Assembly: GCA_963674825.1 (NCBI GenBank)
Contig: OY771587.1
Coordinates: 3,424,001-3,488,000 of the forward strand
Source: Candidatus Cloacimonadales bacterium
GTDB taxonomy: Bacteria; Cloacimonadota; Cloacimonadia; Cloacimonadales; JAIOQZ01
DNA: 64,000 nucleotides
Reading direction: 5' to 3'
Shown here piece by piece: positions 55,868-64,000 of this stretch; the stretch's first letter is position 1; each line of letters begins with the position of its first letter. A program made the translations under genes and the position numbers. Under the pieces are notes generated by a model. The model was not told the origin of the DNA. It worked only from the letters and a program-made list of their open reading frames with translations, and made no database searches.

Positions 55868-57139
55868 TTAACGTACGATTGTTATTTTCCTGACTGATAA
55901 CGTTTTGCTTTCATTCATTGCGGCACAGAAATAGATACCCGATCCAGTCTGTTTGCCATTCACATCGCGTCCGTCCCAGGTGTTTCCGTGAACGTTAGCG
56001 ATGCGTCGTCCGCGCACGTCATAGATAATATAGCGGTCAGCGTTTGTGCCTTCCGGGAGTGAAAAGCTGATACTGCTTCCGTAGCGTGCCGGATTGGGCC
56101 AAGCCTGCAACGCGATAGGAAGGTTCGGCTCTATTCCTTCATCCTGAATTGACGAGGTTTCGACTTTCACAACAACATCTGTTGCACCCACAGCAACCTC
56201 GTAAGTATTTAACAATGAATCGTTTTCCAGTTCATATCGATAGACATCCGAATTGGAAATATAATCGCCAGCATCGACGGATAGCAGCTCACCATTATAG
56301 ATCGTCAGCGCGTTTCCACCAAGAAAGATGCCATCGTTGGGCTCGACAAGCACATCCAGTGTTTCAGCGTTATAAACGTAAACACCTGCTGGCCATGCGT
56401 TTCCCACAAACATCCGGCCATCCTCAAAACAAGCGATCGATTTAGGCGTTCCTCCCAGATTGAGCGTTTCGGTAACAACATTCGTCTGGGGATCGATGAG
56501 ATCGATCTTGCCTGCCACATCGATATAATTTCCGGTACATGATAGGTGGATCATATCGTTATAGACTGCCATACTTTGTGGGTTGAGATCGGTATCGATC
56601 GTAGTAATAAGAGAACAATCCGATGCATCGAAGACCGAAACGGTACCGGGGCTGTACGAATAATTGGATGGATTGAAACCGGTGTTCGAGACGTATATCT
56701 TGCCATCAAAATAAAGGAGACTCTGCGGGTACGTTCCTGTCGCAATAGAGTTGACCACTTCTTCCGATTCCAGATCAATCTGATAGAGGTGGTTGTCGCC
56801 ACTGCCGGTAACCCAAAGATAACCTTCACCGGAGCAGACACCGTACGGCAATACGTTATCACCCAGATAAATGCTGTTCCGTACGCGATTTGACGATAGC
56901 TCGACGACTTCCAGCCTGTTCTCGTAGGTAACTGTCACATAGGCTGTATCGTCCAGGATCGCCATGTAGTTCGGCGCGGCATAGGGGGCATTGCTTAAAA
57001 CCGCAAAGTCGGGATCGATGATACCGGATTCGGTATCGACACTTGAAAGGGTTTGGCTTTCGGAATTCACGACGTAAAAATCGTAACCGAACAGTACCGC
57101 TGAAACAAGCATCAGCAGCGCAATAGAGAATTGTTTCAT
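55868..57139 (-). CDS. YncE/BtuG-like beta-propeller secreted protein with a T9SS/FlgD-type tail, probably cobalamin-binding
   Basis: Signal peptide; YVTN-like blades (YVSNTG, VSVFD, IDLID); tail AWPNP…IYDVRGRRI…WDGRD…GSGIYF…KITIVR; cobalamin riboswitch upstream. Confidence 0.82.
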   Translation of the reverse strand: MKQFSIALLMLVSAVLFGYDFYVVNSESQTLSSVDTESGIIDPDFAVLSNAPYAAPNYMAILDDTAYVTVTYENRLEVVELSSNRVRNSIYLGDNVLPYGVCSGEGYLWVTGSGDNHLYQIDLESEEVVNSIATGTYPQSLLYFDGKIYVSNTGFNPSNYSYSPGTVSVFDASDCSLITTIDTDLNPQSMAVYNDMIHLSCTGNYIDVAGKIDLIDPQTNVVTETLNLGGTPKSIACFEDGRMFVGNAWPAGVYVYNAETLDVLVEPNDGIFLGGNALTIYNGELLSVDAGDYISNSDVYRYELENDSLLNTYEVAVGATDVVVKVETSSIQDEGIEPNLPIALQAWPNPARYGSSISFSLPEGTNADRYIIYDVRGRRIANVHGNTWDGRDVNGKQTGSGIYFCAAMNESKTLSVRKITIVR

Positions 57140-57612: not shown

Positions 57613-59142
57613 ATGATGACGAAACGATTTTTGTTTTTTTTGATTCTCGCGCTGCCATTACTGCTTGTTGCGCAGGATATTGATTCCACTTCAGTAACTG
57701 CGACCGCCAGCACCGGATTCGGCTTTGGCGGAGCGTTTGGAAGCATGACCATGGGCGGTAAGACCTACGCTCAGATCCGCCTGATGCCGGAACTGGTCTT
57801 CGGAAAATTCGGAATCGGTCTCGACGCGGATATCCTGATCGACGAAGAGGGTAACATCCGCGAAGAGGATTGGGACGAATGGGAAGACTACATCAACAAG
57901 ATCTATTACATCCGTTGGAGCCAGCGCGGCGATACCTTCTACGGTAAAGTCGGCGGATTCAAGAGCTACACGCTTGGTCATGGCCTGATCATGAGCAATT
58001 ACACCAATATGCTGCTCTATCCCGAGCATCGCCAGATCGGCCTTCAGCTTGGCGGCACCTTTCCGGGTGACCTCTTTGATCTGGAAGTGTTCACCTCCAA
58101 CGTCCTCGAGAATGACATCCTCGCAGGCCGCGTAGGAACCAAGCCACTCAGTATGATGCCAATCCCGATCCTTAACGGGCTCAAGATCGGCGTTTCTGCC
58201 GCTACCGATCGCGATCAGTACAAGGGCCTTCTGGATGACGATGACGACAACTATGCAAACGAATTCGACGACTTCCCCTACAACGAAGACAAGCACAACC
58301 TCGTCGACGAACCGGACGAAGTGGCGTATCAGATGGAAATCTATCAGGAAATCCACGGCGATACCACCGGCTTCCATAACTGGTTCTGGAATGATTCTGC
58401 CGCGATCGACAGTCGCCGCAACCCGTCGCTCGACGAGTTCGAGAAAGACGATGTGACTGTCGTGGGCGTCGATTACGAATTACCCCTGATTCAGCTCGAA
58501 CAATTCTATCTCAGCAACTATGCTGAATACGCCAACATCCTCGATCATCAGTGGGGCTTGATTTTCCCAGGTTTCTACATGAAATTTCTCATCTTTAACA
58601 TGAACCTCGAATATCGATATTACCACGAGGATTTCGAGCCATCGTTCTTCGACAACCTCTATGAGGAAAATCGCGTGAGCGTTTATACGGTTAATGATTC
58701 CGCAGTTGCCTATACCAAGGAAGAGACACTTCCGCTGAATCCCGAGATGCAGGGTTGGTATGGCAGCGTCACCGCCAACCTCTTCAACACGCTCTATCTG
58801 ACCGTTGCATACGAAGATATGTACACCAGCGCGAATGAAGACGAAGGCTGGAGCGACCGCAATAAGTCGATCTGGGGTAAGCTTGCCCTGGCGCAGTCGG
58901 TAATTCCGCAGCTCAAGGAACTCTCCATCGCTTACCAGCAAACGCGCGTCAAACACGTACTCAAAGAATGGAAGACACCGTCCTCGCTTATTACCGGAAC
59001 CGTTGTCTATGGCATGTCCAGCAACACCAATCTGGTTGCGAAATATCAGGAACGCTATGTTGACTACAACAACGACGGCGAGATCAAGAGTGAAGACGAG
59101 ACCATCAAGACGATGGCCTTCGGCGTCGAATTCCACTTCTGA
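57613..59142 (+). CDS. Putative outer-membrane beta-barrel protein with acidic Ca-binding-like loops
   Basis: Signal peptide; amphipathic strands; DDDDDNYANEFDDFPYNED and DYNNDGE loops; ends FGVEFHF; TTGACA at 57548. Confidence 0.72.
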   Translation: MMTKRFLFFLILALPLLLVAQDIDSTSVTATASTGFGFGGAFGSMTMGGKTYAQIRLMPELVFGKFGIGLDADILIDEEGNIREEDWDEWEDYINKIYYIRWSQRGDTFYGKVGGFKSYTLGHGLIMSNYTNMLLYPEHRQIGLQLGGTFPGDLFDLEVFTSNVLENDILAGRVGTKPLSMMPIPILNGLKIGVSAATDRDQYKGLLDDDDDNYANEFDDFPYNEDKHNLVDEPDEVAYQMEIYQEIHGDTTGFHNWFWNDSAAIDSRRNPSLDEFEKDDVTVVGVDYELPLIQLEQFYLSNYAEYANILDHQWGLIFPGFYMKFLIFNMNLEYRYYHEDFEPSFFDNLYEENRVSVYTVNDSAVAYTKEETLPLNPEMQGWYGSVTANLFNTLYLTVAYEDMYTSANEDEGWSDRNKSIWGKLALAQSVIPQLKELSIAYQQTRVKHVLKEWKTPSSLITGTVVYGMSSNTNLVAKYQERYVDYNNDGEIKSEDETIKTMAFGVEFHF

Positions 59143-59261: not shown

Positions 59262-59290
59262 TTGACAAGCGTTAAATGCACGAGTAAAAT
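59262..59290 (+). promoter_or_regulatory. Sigma70-type promoter of the 59.3-64 kb operon
   Basis: TTGACA-N17-TAAAAT, ending 27 bp before the ATG at 59318. Confidence 0.75.
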
Positions 59291-59317
59291 TTATTTATAC
59301 GCAACAAAGCAGGTAAT

Positions 59318-59845
59318 ATGAAAAAACAAATTCTCCTTTGCGCCTTGGTTATCATGTTCGGGTGCATCTATGCCGCTGACGAACTGGATCCGCTTGGCGA
59401 TCTGGGTAATCTCTATTGGGGCATTTCAGCCGATACGGTCAGCCATCGTTATGAAGCGTCCGTGGTTGATTTCAACGAATTTGCCATCGTCTGTAACGGC
59501 GAGTACCTCGGCCATCCGGCCTACGTCATGTATATATTCAGTGATGACGGCCTGAGCATGATCACGCACAACCTGCTTGTGGAAAGCGAAGAGGCTGAAC
59601 CGTTTTTTGCCATGTATGATGAAATCCGTACTCATCTGATGAATTCTTACGGCAAGCCAACGGAAGATCAAGAAATCGGAACAGATATTGCAAAAGAAGA
59701 GTTGTTTAACGAAATCAGCAGTGGACAGAAGCAGCTCAATACGTTTTGGGTTGTGGGCGATACTCGTTTGGTCTTGAGTTTGAAGAAGAGCCGGGTGTCC
59801 GAATATCCGGTCTCGATCGTTGTCCTCTATTCGCACAACCAATAG
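59318..59845 (+). CDS. Hypothetical secreted protein
   Basis: Signal peptide; LYWGIS…YIFSDDGL…SYGKP alpha/beta pattern. Confidence 0.75.
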   Translation: MKKQILLCALVIMFGCIYAADELDPLGDLGNLYWGISADTVSHRYEASVVDFNEFAIVCNGEYLGHPAYVMYIFSDDGLSMITHNLLVESEEAEPFFAMYDEIRTHLMNSYGKPTEDQEIGTDIAKEELFNEISSGQKQLNTFWVVGDTRLVLSLKKSRVSEYPVSIVVLYSHNQ

Positions 59846-59861
59846 CAAAGGAGTGTTCCTT

Positions 59862-60401
59862 ATGAAGCGGTGGATCACAGGCATACTGTGCCTATTTTTT
59901 GCAATTCAACTAGCGGCTGAATCGATGATTGTGCATACCCATGAGCAAGATTACTCGTTTGATGTTGAAGACGTTAGCGTCATGCTGGTTTATACCGATA
60001 CCAACATCATCAGCATTCAGACAACAGCAGGTAACTACGATTTCCACATGCTCGACGACATCATTTCAATCGAGTTTGACACCGTCGGTATCGAGCCGGA
60101 TCTGGAGGAGATCGGAGAGCGTGTACCGGTTAAATTCCTAAAAAACTACCCCAATCCGTTCAATCCCGAGACCTCGATCAGCTTCGACACAGGCTATGAC
60201 GCGAAGGTGAACCTGACGATCTACAATGTCAAAGGGCAGAAGGTTAAAACGCTCGTTGACAGCATGATGAAACAGGGTTCGCACAGCGTAAAATGGCAGG
60301 GCACCGACAGCCACGGCAAGAAGGTTGGCGGAGGCGTTTACTTCTATCGTATCGAAGTTGGTAACAAAGTAATCACCCGTAAAATGCTGCTCCTTAAATA
60401 G
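59862..60401 (+). CDS. Small secreted protein: ~55-aa passenger with two motif copies + T9SS type-A/FlgD-like tail
   Basis: Signal peptide MKRW…QLAA; tail NYPNPFNPET…IYNVKGQKVKTL…GGVYFYR…KMLLLK; AGGAG RBS. Confidence 0.88.
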   Translation: MKRWITGILCLFFAIQLAAESMIVHTHEQDYSFDVEDVSVMLVYTDTNIISIQTTAGNYDFHMLDDIISIEFDTVGIEPDLEEIGERVPVKFLKNYPNPFNPETSISFDTGYDAKVNLTIYNVKGQKVKTLVDSMMKQGSHSVKWQGTDSHGKKVGGGVYFYRIEVGNKVITRKMLLLK

Positions 60402-60411
60402 GGAGGATGTC

Positions 60412-61614
60412 ATGAAATATGCATCCATCCTTATAATGCTCATATTGTGCCTGAATCTGGCTGCCACGAGCATGGTTATCGAACGCCAGGATCAGGCAAG
60501 AATCATCATCCCCGTCGATACCATCGACAGCCTATATTTCTCGAATGATACCGTAGGTGAGGTCGCGCAGTTGCAGTTTGTGATGCAGGAACCGCCGGAA
60601 TATCCCAACGATCCCGTGATCATCTATATCGAGCTGGTGGATATCAATGGTAACCTCGTACTCGAATCGCATCCTGTCACACTGTCGTTTGCGACCGTTC
60701 CACCGGATATGGTAAATATCAACGACATGGTCTATACGATCTACGATTCAACGGCGGTCAATTCCGTGGACGGCGTTGTTACAGCCTCGTTAAACCCGGG
60801 CAACGTAGAAGGCGTTGTAACCATCCGCGCAACCGTTGAGGTCAACGGAAACACCATCACTGCTACCTGTCAGTATGCGATCCATATGATGGCGATCGAA
60901 GGCTTTTACCTTTGGATCGGCGACGCCGGATACAATATTGGCGGTGGTAACTGGGCTTTACCTGTAGCGGCTGTTCTGACGACAGCGGACGGAGTGCTGG
61001 TTCCAGATGGTATCCCGGTATCGTTCAGCATAGGCGATTACGGCAATGATTGGGCAAACATCGAAGAATCTGCTTACACTGGGAATTCCTGCTCCTACGC
61101 AGGCCCAACACCTGGGTATGCTTACACGATCCTGACGTATGACGGTTCGTACTCCATGTTGCCTTTGACTATCAATATCAGTGCAGGGGGATTGACGGCA
61201 CCAATAATTTCCTACTTGCCTATCAATCAGCCCCAAATGGAAGCAATACCCATGCCTGGGCATCCGGATTTTGTCTTCGACGAAGATACGCACTACTTTT
61301 CCTGCGATTTTCTGATGAATGTTACCGATGGACAGGGGAATCCGATACGAAATGCCATCATCCAGATGACTTCCACTCACGGTACCTTCCAGGAGCCGGA
61401 CGAAGAATATCAGGTTCCGAATGGCGACTGGTCGCGGCTACTAACAAACGAAGAAGGCGTGGCGATCGGAACGATCCTATTCACTGAGGAGGATTGCCCT
61501 CCGGTGGATGATCCCCCCAATGAAGTTCCCGTCGAGATGACTTTCAATCTGTACGGGACTGATGTAACCGAATCTGTGACCTTCACGCTACGAAACTACA
61601 ACGAGCTCGAATAA
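60412..61614 (+). CDS. Secreted acidic protein with about three Ig-like (Big-1/invasin-like) domains, paralog 1
   Basis: Signal peptide; ELVDINGN, VTDGQGNPI, TNEEGVA; GGAGG RBS. Confidence 0.75.
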   Translation: MKYASILIMLILCLNLAATSMVIERQDQARIIIPVDTIDSLYFSNDTVGEVAQLQFVMQEPPEYPNDPVIIYIELVDINGNLVLESHPVTLSFATVPPDMVNINDMVYTIYDSTAVNSVDGVVTASLNPGNVEGVVTIRATVEVNGNTITATCQYAIHMMAIEGFYLWIGDAGYNIGGGNWALPVAAVLTTADGVLVPDGIPVSFSIGDYGNDWANIEESAYTGNSCSYAGPTPGYAYTILTYDGSYSMLPLTINISAGGLTAPIISYLPINQPQMEAIPMPGHPDFVFDEDTHYFSCDFLMNVTDGQGNPIRNAIIQMTSTHGTFQEPDEEYQVPNGDWSRLLTNEEGVAIGTILFTEEDCPPVDDPPNEVPVEMTFNLYGTDVTESVTFTLRNYNELE

Positions 61615-61625
61615 AGAGGTGGCCC

Positions 61626-62825
61626 ATGCGGAATCTATACATCATACTGTTAAGCGTTTTTGTGGTAACATTATCTGCCACCAGCCTGATCATCGATCGG
61701 GGAGAAGACGCAAGGATCGTCGTTGAAACCGACACAATTGACAGCCTCTATTTTTCGGATACGGTTTACAGTGAAGAGGTGGCGCAGATACATTTCGTCG
61801 TGGACGATACGGATCCATACCATGGTGACGAACTGATCATGGTAGAGCTAATGGATGCCAATGGAAATCTCGTGCTCGATTCACCACCGGTGACCTTATC
61901 CTTTGCATATACACCTCCCGGCGGAGCCAACATCAACAATGAAGTATATACCATCGAAGACTCGATTACGGTCGCGACATATAATGGAATTGCCCTTGCT
62001 GTCCTCCACTGGGGTTATGAAGCCGGCTACGCGGTGATTCGTGCATCCGTGGAAAGCAATGGGCAGATGATTTCGAACACTCAAGGGTATGTCGTCTATG
62101 CATCAGAGGTAGAAAGTATTGATATTCAAATGGGAACCTCTGCGATTGACTGTGGTAATGGCTTCTGGTCAGTTCCTATCGCAGCCATGTGTTTGACTGT
62201 GGACGGCAATACACCTCCGTATGGTACCGCGGTCTGGTTTACGATCGATGACGAAACTATTGAATGGTGCAATGTTGTTGCCGAAAGCTATACTGGGAAT
62301 CATAATGTCTATGGCGATTCGACTCAGGGCGTAGCCAATACGCTCCTGACATATGATGGTTCTCACAGTTTGGAGGAAGTACCGGTCCATGTTGAATGCG
62401 GAAATCTCTCTGTAGTGGAATACATCCAGTTACCGATACAGTTGCCTCAACTTGAAATATACCCCATGCCTGGTCACTTGGACTGGACAAACAATAACTT
62501 CCCAAGCCCACTTGTTGGCGAGATATTTGCACAAGTGTCCGATGCGCAAGGGAACCCGATTGCGAATGCAGTAATTATTTTTTACTCAGAGCGCGGTGAA
62601 TTCATCGAGCCGGACGAACAATATCAAGTTCCCGGAGAGGATTGGTATGTGCTGCAAACAAACGAATGGGGTAATGCGAGAGCTCTTATACAATACCAAA
62701 CCTACGAATGCCCACCGGTCATTCCGCCACCCAATGAGATACCAGTTGATATTCATGCAACCATCCTGGGCACCGAGGTAACTGACCAAACAACGGTGAT
62801 CCTGTTGAACTACTATACTGATTAG
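61626..62825 (+). CDS. Secreted Ig-like (Big-1/invasin-like) protein, paralog 2
   Basis: Colinear with paralog 1 (DTIDSLYFS, ELMDANGNLVL, LTYDGS, PMPGH, CPPV). Confidence 0.75.
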   Translation: MRNLYIILLSVFVVTLSATSLIIDRGEDARIVVETDTIDSLYFSDTVYSEEVAQIHFVVDDTDPYHGDELIMVELMDANGNLVLDSPPVTLSFAYTPPGGANINNEVYTIEDSITVATYNGIALAVLHWGYEAGYAVIRASVESNGQMISNTQGYVVYASEVESIDIQMGTSAIDCGNGFWSVPIAAMCLTVDGNTPPYGTAVWFTIDDETIEWCNVVAESYTGNHNVYGDSTQGVANTLLTYDGSHSLEEVPVHVECGNLSVVEYIQLPIQLPQLEIYPMPGHLDWTNNNFPSPLVGEIFAQVSDAQGNPIANAVIIFYSERGEFIEPDEQYQVPGEDWYVLQTNEWGNARALIQYQTYECPPVIPPPNEIPVDIHATILGTEVTDQTTVILLNYYTD

Positions 62826-62834
62826 GAGTGAACA

Positions 62835-64000
62835 ATGCGAAACCTCTTCATGATTCTGTTTTTAAATGCCGTAGCCGCACTGACGGCAGCAAGCCTCGTC
62901 ATCGACCGCACAGAAGGCCCTGACCTTGCATGCGATACCGCCGATATCCAGGAATTGACCTTCACTGATTCGACAGTGGGCGTAAACATCGCTTCAATCG
63001 AATATTTCGAGAGCGAATTTCAGCTTCTTTCCAACTCCTCGACGACGCTTAAGGCGGCGGTGCTGGATCAATTCGGCAATCTTGTCGATACCGATCAGGA
63101 CGTGATCTTTCTTTTCGTGTGGGATCCCACAAACGGGACCAACATCAACGGCGAGATCGACGAACAATTCGAGACACTTACCGTAACGCCAGTGAACGGC
63201 ATTGCTTCAGCTACACTGAACACTGGTGACCCCGGCCTGACAAGCATTAGCGTGCGCACGACGGACTATCTCGGAAGCACTATTGAGGAAAACCGCATCG
63301 TGACCATCTTCTCGACGCCAATATCCACAGTTGGACTCGTGGACGCTCCATTCAGCGGAACAAACGCCGGTGCTGGAAACTGGCGCGTAACGATCAGTGC
63401 CATTTGCAGCAACGACCTCGGTATGGCATCACCCAAAGACATGCCATGTGTGTTTTCACTGGTTGATCCGACGATCGACTGGGCAAACATTACCGGTGAA
63501 GGTTACATCGGTAATACGAATGTAGAGGGACAATCCTATACAGGCGTGGCGTTCACGGATCTGGTGTATCATGGCTCGCACTCCCTGGAACAGATCGGTA
63601 TTCAGTTTGTAGCTGATGGGACAACGGATGTCGAATATGTGGAACTCCCGCTGAATGAGCCGGCGATCTCGATATCGCTCAATCCTGCCAACCTTGTCTG
63701 GAGCAGTGGTACTGGTGAGGACGATCTCATCGGCGAGGTGCTCGTACATGTGCAGGACAGCCAGGGGAATCCGGTTACAGGCGCTGTGATCAACCTGATG
63801 AGCTCTCGGGGAGAGTTTATCGAAGCGGGTGAACCGTACCAGATTGAAGGTGAGCCGGATAATGTGATCCAGAGTGTTGAAGGTGTGGCGATTGGGTTAA
63901 TCTGCATGCACTGGTACGAATGCCCTCCTGTGGATAATCCTCCGAATCAGCTCAACGTCGATATAACAGCGGTTTTGGGATCACATCAGCTTACCGCGAC
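62835..64000 (+). CDS. Secreted Ig-like protein, paralog 3; truncated by the window edge and absent from the ORF track
   Basis: Hand translation is open from ATG 62835 (AGGAG RBS) to the end: MRNLFMILFLNAVAALTAASLVIDRTEGP…VLDQFGNLV…LVYHGSHSLE…VQDSQGNPV…ECPPVDNPPNQ. Confidence 0.85.
   Translation, partial: MRNLFMILFLNAVAALTAASLVIDRTEGPDLACDTADIQELTFTDSTVGVNIASIEYFESEFQLLSNSSTTLKAAVLDQFGNLVDTDQDVIFLFVWDPTNGTNINGEIDEQFETLTVTPVNGIASATLNTGDPGLTSISVRTTDYLGSTIEENRIVTIFSTPISTVGLVDAPFSGTNAGAGNWRVTISAICSNDLGMASPKDMPCVFSLVDPTIDWANITGEGYIGNTNVEGQSYTGVAFTDLVYHGSHSLEQIGIQFVADGTTDVEYVELPLNEPAISISLNPANLVWSSGTGEDDLIGEVLVHVQDSQGNPVTGAVINLMSSRGEFIEAGEPYQIEGEPDNVIQSVEGVAIGLICMHWYECPPVDNPPNQLNVDITAVLGSHQLTA

Follow-up and report, generated by a model that had tools for sequence, protein, structure and literature searches.

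Why would a bacterium encode a secreted protein that consists of little besides two short, similar units and a type IX secretion system (T9SS) sorting tail, directly ahead of three larger secreted proteins that each begin with one such unit and end without a tail? This question is raised by a gene row in a stretch of 64,000 nucleotides from a Candidatus Cloacimonadales bacterium (contig OY771587.1, positions 3,424,001 to 3,488,000, in the following termed the window), whose genome (G000) is 99.6% complete. A sequence-only reading of this DNA had proposed that the small tailed protein, here called A, serves as carrier for its tail-less neighbours B, C and D. Following up this proposal, we find an arrangement that is real, widespread and apparently undescribed in the literature searched. 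As for the mechanism, which we infer, sequence comparisons and structural models incline us to a motif-mediated co-assembly, in which A, by lending its tail in trans, would bring the tail-less neighbours to the cell surface and anchor them there.

Architecture of the gene row

The candidate carrier A (179 residues, 59862..60401, plus strand) starts with a signal peptide recognized by eye, which is followed by two motif units of 25 residues each (59919..59993 and 60003..60077, plus strand) and by a C-terminal tail of the type-A T9SS/FlgD-Ig class encompassing residues 96-179 (60147..60398, plus strand). In Pfam and NCBIfam scans, this tail scores above the cut-offs of Por_Secre_tail (PF18962, 33.8 bits, cut-off 27) and TIGR04183 (39.4 bits, cut-off 23) and also above that of FlgD_ig (PF13860, 36.6 bits). 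The three following genes on the same strand encode paralogs that are 32-43% identical, each comprising about 400 residues with weak Big_1/invasin matches. B (400 residues, 60412..61614) combines a signal peptide and one motif unit (60466..60540) with a Big_1/invasin-like immunoglobulin (Ig) body, C (399 residues, 61626..62825) carries one unit at its N-terminus (61680..61754) and D (398 residues, 62835..64000), with its unit at 62889..62963, extends beyond the window by 31 bases and ends at genome position 3488031. No sorting-tail match was found in any of the three at E-values up to 1 in the same scans, where D was represented by its first 388 residues, and the last residues of the complete D, taken from the genome sequence, show no tail either. 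Family scans thus bear out the described architecture of a minimal tailed protein followed by tail-less proteins sharing an N-terminal motif, and the absence of a tail noted for the two complete paralogs extends to the third.

The row is headed by ORF0 (175 residues, 59318..59845, plus strand), an open reading frame (ORF) with a signal-peptide-like start, without the motif and without a Pfam or NCBIfam family, which is absent from the earlier description and occupies this first position in each of the genus's four genomes. The entire row, with ORF0, A and the motif-headed genes, is conserved in the same 4/4 genomes. Its five co-oriented genes ORF0-A-B-C-D are separated by 16, 10, 11 and 9 bp and lie behind a sigma-70-like site (TTGACA-17-TAAAAT, 59262..59290, plus strand) matching 11 of 12 consensus positions. 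Of the earlier description of one near-consensus promoter and gaps of about 10-16 bp, the compact spacing stands with a slightly wider range of 9-16 bp, whereas the promoter is to be read as a consensus match only, as sites of this type are no commoner than chance (9 compared to 8.4 ± 2.9 in shuffled sequences).

Relationship between the motif units

The units share a pattern of alternating hydrophobic strands that ends in I-x-x-I-x-F. When compared pairwise within the window, the units of A show no significant similarity to those of B, C and D (six pairs, shuffle p-values between 0.03 and 0.79), and all claims of homology consequently rest on profiles. In an alignment of profiles with HHalign, a profile of cargo units matches one of two-unit carriers with a probability of 95% and an E-value of 4e-8, so that the profile comparison suggested along with the original proposal turned out in its favour. 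Profiles held out from the genus point in the same direction: with 26 cargo units from other genera, B ranks 1st, D 3rd, C 8th and A 32nd of 5056 ORFs, and with 11 carrier units from other genera, A ranks 1st, D 5th, B 37th and C 134th of the same number. Since the ranks across types are weaker than those within a type, carrier and cargo units are, as judged from these matrices, related subtypes. The motif has no family in Pfam, NCBIfam, PDB sequences or the ESM Atlas, and its profile matches no solved sequence in the PDB. NF047433, which matched one motif member at an E-value of 0.006, was set aside.

Carrier-cargo pairs in two phyla

We have searched 232 Cloacimonadota genomes with successive profiles, which matched 8, then 32 and finally 43 of them, and examined 56 loci from profile matches, the four operons of the genus and a second site in the genome of the window. 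The resulting pairs were tallied by eye from script output. In this tally, 41 carriers are located directly before a motif-headed tail-less gene, a number that is inflated since many of them were seen only as neighbours of cargo matches, and one further carrier is separated from its cargo by a single gene. The remainder comprises 13 cargo genes without an adjacent carrier and two loci, L113 and L117, that are truncated at the ends of their contigs, neither of which was assigned. Four rows of the last search (L111, L114, L115 and L116) were dropped as internal chance matches that are not N-terminal, three of them in unrelated membrane proteins. The number of units varies between one, two and three in carriers and between one and two in cargo, and the cargo belongs to at least nine families, with Pfam matches including DUF5050/PD40 propeller, DOMON, FGE-sulfatase, CpeT, Laminin_G_3, Big_1 and Cthe_2159. 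A single genome, G101, contains five separate carrier-cargo pairs besides one orphan cargo.

Because carriers were often detected beside a cargo match, we used two tests that are independent of adjacency. Among the 208 tailed ORFs of the window's genome, 8 are short, and one of these is a carrier with three units. It forms a second pair (locus L165, G000:C1:1625587-1627220, minus strand), where it directly precedes the gene of a one-unit FGE-sulfatase-like protein that has no tail. In two other genes of this genome (G000:C1:1955061-1955465, plus strand, and 2938764-2939141, minus strand), the signal peptide is almost directly followed by a sorting tail, with neither passenger nor motif.

For the second phylum, a Paludibacter genome served to define the class, from which 301 genomes were sampled, and 23 of these were matched by a profile built mostly from carriers. 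These Bacteroidia contribute 28 loci with 25 carrier calls, 24 of them distinct, and three loci without such a call. A matrix derived from Cloacimonadota units only assigns at least 10 bits to the downstream gene in 23 of the 25 calls (22 of 24 distinct pairs), a level that is reached by 6 of 2522 ORFs in the genome of the window, including B, C, D and the cargo of the second pair. Among 47 other ORFs in the Bacteroidia loci, the remainder of which score 2 bits or less, three exceed 20 bits and read as cargo-type genes of the loci without carrier call. All 15 scanned Bacteroidia carriers have a Por_Secre_tail match, 13 of them above the cut-off of this family and two above that of FlgD_ig, compared to no Por_Secre_tail match in 15 complete downstream genes, a count that excludes nine genes cut by the end of the locus. 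The cargo here adds Fib_succ_major, Lcl_C, YceI and GH43 to the list of families, and more pairs were seen in Paludibacter and other Bacteroidia, some with two units in the cargo. The predicted co-occurrence of carrier genes with motif-headed tail-less genes is thus strong in both phyla, whereas the proposed rule of two copies with a tail and one copy without fails, given the variation in unit number. A tailed protein whose sole passenger is the motif, ahead of more than 10 families that carry a sister motif, is most simply understood as an adaptor.

Predicted structure of the units and their assembly

In an AlphaFold2 prediction based on an alignment of four rows, the two units of A fold into a small barrel of six strands with a pLDDT (predicted local distance difference test) of 88. 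Each unit is predicted to contain a hairpin, a short helix and a strand, and two of them would together constitute one barrel resembling Sm and DUF903 proteins. The best fold matches of this barrel are DUF903/YgdR lipoproteins, Rv3208A and Hfq. In the predicted model of mature C, residues 1-28 are unfolded (pLDDT 42-51) while the remainder folds into Ig domains. The passenger of A is not an Ig fold in its model. The motif of C does not join the protein's own Ig domains, contrary to the possibility, considered at the outset, that the N-terminus of a paralog would form part of its first Ig domain. A lone unit is predicted to stay unfolded until it meets partners.

The suggested modelling of a complex was carried out with two copies of the B motif and the barrel of A as three chains. 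It yields a score of 0.48 compared to 0.13 for the best control and drops to 0.01 upon replacement of the B motif, with at least 92% of the contacts agreeing between runs and a pLDDT of at least 79 for the partner. In the calibration of this score, 116 of 157 solved pairs passed the applied mark, as did 2 of 215 mismatched ones, and scores of up to 0.60 that pass it comprise just 18 of the 157 solved pairs and both mismatched ones, so the support from this model is weak. Of the original idea of strand complementation in a system resembling scaffold and dockerin, an association mediated by the motif thus receives weak support. The resemblance to a dockerin system does not carry over, since both partners contain the same kind of unit and A is predicted to form a closed barrel. 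As its two units fold together, a co-assembly of the Sm/DUF903 type appears to be a better fit to the models than two open cohesin-like sockets.

Origin of the Ig body

Residues 71-396 of C are 49% identical, over 330 residues, to the C-terminal part of an 894-residue protein with multiple Big_1 domains in the same genome (locus L036, G000:C1:3021307-3024000, minus strand), whose start appears by eye to be that of a lipoprotein. Its gene is located between those of a secretin and T2SSE in a type IV pilus-like cluster that also includes PilM and T2SSF, and the protein is possibly an unrecognised pilus or secretin accessory. The body defined by its C-terminal part matches in 183 of the 232 genomes of the phylum. 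At 26 loci from other genera, it resides within longer proteins that lack the motif and mostly have lipoprotein-like starts, whereas the motif-headed form of 400 residues was seen only within the genus, where ORF0 and A precede it in each of the four genomes. In these proteins, the motif occupies the place of a lipid-anchored stalk. A fold search with full-length C retrieved only generic multi-Ig proteins. A cargo of G143 (L094:326-865), from another family of the phylum, joins the motif to just one Big_1-like domain. On visual comparison, this domain looks like the one that ends B-D, and it may have been captured independently.

Secretion machinery

The original proposal leaned on the T9SS of Bacteroidota, whereas the organism belongs to the Cloacimonadota, for which one report (PMC11285876) states that a T9SS may be present. 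SprA and PorU are both found above cut-offs in the genome of the window. GldM/PorM has no match in this genome or in G115, where a divergent form could be missed, although GldM is above the cut-off in all three carrier-bearing Bacteroidia genomes that served as positive controls in the same search. As this genome encodes SprA, PorU and 208 tailed ORFs while GldM has no match, Cloacimonadota may run a T9SS without its known motor.

Proposed assembly and export of the cargo

How could a tail on one chain serve others? In the process that we favour, all chains would reach the periplasm by Sec. Cargo units would pair and either join the barrel of the carrier edge to edge or swap strands, as in the rings of DUF903, SwrD and Sm proteins, and such an assembly would tolerate any mix of chains with one, two or three units. 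The tail of the carrier would then take the folded complex to the PorV/SprA translocon, and PorU would remove the tail and fix the carrier to the surface, to which the cargo would stay bound non-covalently. In the operon of the window, the cargo would be an adhesin-like stalk end of three Ig domains taken from a lipoprotein, with the motif standing in for the lipid anchor. A physical association through the motif is likely, as this step is common to the described process and to the alternative closest to it, whereas piggyback export is the weaker step.

Several observations weigh against the process. Beyond the inflated tally of Cloacimonadota pairs, 9 of the 13 motif-headed genes without an adjacent carrier are found in genomes with a carrier elsewhere, and other genomes appear to lack one. 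Among the matches listed, there is no carrier in G044 (99% complete), G060 and G179 (80-89%), and none of the 18 short tailed ORF regions of these three genomes is a carrier. The same absence was found by profile search alone in G045 (80-89% complete), and within the stretches examined in G445, a member of the Bacteroidia with four motif-headed genes. Single-motif proteins without carrier genes, which had been named as a potential objection, thus do occur, although at low frequency and, in the Cloacimonadota, in four genomes, which means that carriers escaped detection or that the motif can function alone. On the structural side, the fold matches of the A barrel are modest, with template modelling scores of 0.6-0.69 and E-values of 0.07 or worse in Foldseek, and with Z-scores in VIA of 5.4 for 3bdu (root mean square deviation 2.6, 49 aligned residues) and 5.0 for Hfq. 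Since Sm-like rings have already been solved, the score of the modelled complex may reflect a likeness to them, and since the two units of A already close a barrel in the model, the geometry proposed for docking is tentative. On the side of the machinery, the best PorV match in the genome of the window reaches 157 bits over most of the model at a cut-off of 250, and the search for GldK returned only weak matches to its FGE domain. Together with the lack of a GldM match, this suggests that the Cloacimonadota system may work differently, and export driven by the tail is itself an assumption in this organism.

The short tailed proteins of G044 include three (L167:502-987, L168:439-1008 and L169:155-931) that share another N-terminal motif of about 15 residues, which is possibly another docking tag.

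In an alternative reading, the motifs do bind but the carrier serves as an anchor only. The cargo would cross the outer membrane by other means and be captured later, as a scaffoldin captures cellulosomal enzymes, or the complex would stay in the periplasm. Orphan cargo, some in genomes where no carrier was found, and the absence of a GldM match would both be in line with such anchoring, and a ring of several chains with their cargo could be too large for one passage through SprA. The same phylum also offers a predicted scaffoldin with cohesins and a C-terminal domain (CTD) alongside dockerin enzymes, according to PMC8542988. We nevertheless regard anchoring without joint export as unlikely, as the cargo shows, by eye, a Sec-type signal peptide and no other export tag, a lone motif that is predicted to be unfolded favours assembly soon after Sec export, and each cassette has its own carrier, with five of them in G101.

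Still less likely, in our judgement, is an account in which the cargo forms its own dimers or rings for avidity while A remains closed, the genes being a co-regulated cassette derived from a split or duplicated gene. It would agree with the confident prediction that the two units of A fold alone, with the distinguishable subtypes of carrier and cargo units, with the insignificant pairwise similarity inside the window and with the existence of cargo without carriers. Self-association leaves unexplained, however, why a tailed protein should have the motif as its sole passenger and why it should stand in fixed order before more than 10 unrelated cargo families in two phyla. The collapse of the complex score upon replacement of the B motif also speaks against it, as does, on weak evidence, the lack of a fused motif-cargo-tail protein among 29 matches of 103-2000 residues for which 8000 candidates were scored.

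Donor-strand chaperones are known in pili, and they, together with the predicted disorder of the lone motif, support a reading of A as a cap that shields a sticky cargo motif in the periplasm until the cargo polymerises or attaches elsewhere, with the tail disposing of A, but this appears very improbable, as single domains for catalysis or binding, without a common acceptor groove, are found among the cargo families and nothing tested points to polymerisation.

Other features of the window

A cobalamin riboswitch (RF00174, 57201-57388, minus strand, 110.7 bits) is located upstream of a gene at 55868-57139 on the same strand, which encodes a beta-propeller protein with a T9SS tail that is likely a surface protein for the capture of vitamin B12. 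Between this region and the described row, a gene at 57613-59142 (plus strand) encodes a secreted protein of 509 residues without family match, whose end resembles an outer-membrane barrel in its alternating pattern and terminal phenylalanine.

Discussion

The co-assembly outlined above shares features with several known systems. As in type-A cargo of the T9SS, A combines a signal peptide with a tail above cut-offs in a genome that encodes SprA and PorU. In known cargo, the tail resides on the same chain as the function, whereas A is almost without passenger and the functional domains are found on its tail-less neighbours, and the absence of a GldM match in this genome is a further departure from the canonical Bacteroidota system.

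As in scaffolds of cohesins and dockerins, functional proteins that lack a tail would be held, by way of a modular tag, by a tailed partner with no catalytic role. The nearest published case is found in Candidatus Stygibacter, another member of the Cloacimonadota, for which PMC8542988 reports a predicted cohesin scaffoldin bearing a CTD. Neither cohesin nor dockerin has a Pfam match in A-D or in 63 rows of the motif, and three dockerin matches occur elsewhere in this genome. Different from cohesin-dockerin pairs, both partners here share one kind of tag, an all-beta stretch of about 25 residues at the N-terminus, and the carrier is smaller than 25 kDa and encoded beside its cargo.

The predicted fold of A best matches the barrels of DUF903/YgdR, SwrD/FlbD and Sm/Hfq proteins, with scores that are within the range of a common arrangement. 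According to PMC13740483, the rings of SwrD and DUF903 are built from hairpin, 3-10 helix and strands, with the hairpin of one subunit completing a sheet across the interface with the strands of the next. By analogy, these rings may be taken as precedent for the geometry, not as evidence for the pair of A and its cargo. No sequence membership in either family was detected, as PF06004 (DUF903) and PF06289 (SwrD) both lack a match in two sets of motif members, with 0 of 16 in one and 0 of 47 in the other. In contrast to DUF903, SwrD and Sm proteins, which are homo-oligomers, single half-domains here head unrelated cargo.

Hitchhiker export, exemplified by hydrogenases of the twin-arginine translocation pathway and by piggyback import into peroxisomes (PMC9251779), similarly relies on one subunit with a signal that is accompanied by a signal-less partner. 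It involves another membrane and machine and the subunits of one enzyme, whereas the present case would involve a dedicated carrier with exchangeable cargo. In type-B CTD cargo that interacts with cognate PorP/SprF proteins, as described in PMC9143113, a partner likewise holds the cargo at the surface by non-covalent binding. In that system, the CTD belongs to the cargo, which binds to an outer-membrane barrel, whereas in the present one it belongs to the partner and is absent from the cargo. Searches of the open literature returned no description of the motif or of the gene pair, and a term search in PMC10202324 and PMC10994853 gave nothing relevant.

On balance, and with some caution, we lean towards a split type IX secretion signal, in which mini-carriers would lend their tail in trans to any protein with a half-barrel tag of 25 residues and mixed Sm-like assemblies would be exported and displayed. 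As profiles pick up the module in 43 of the 232 genomes from Cloacimonadota, a count that still includes the four rows dropped later, and in 23 of the 301 sampled from Bacteroidia, this proposal is testable in a genetically tractable Bacteroidota host. If true, SprA would be shown to pass hetero-complexes, and the motif would supply enzyme display with a compact docking pair of natural origin, besides illustrating how half-barrel units assemble across chains. Current prediction of T9SS cargo looks for a tail on the protein itself. Should a short tag suffice to borrow this tail, many tail-less proteins of the Fib_succ_major, FGE-sulfatase-like, GH43, DOMON and Ig families would be overlooked surface cargo, and a hidden class of tail-less T9SS substrates with a portable tag for surface display would extend across Bacteroidota and Cloacimonadota.

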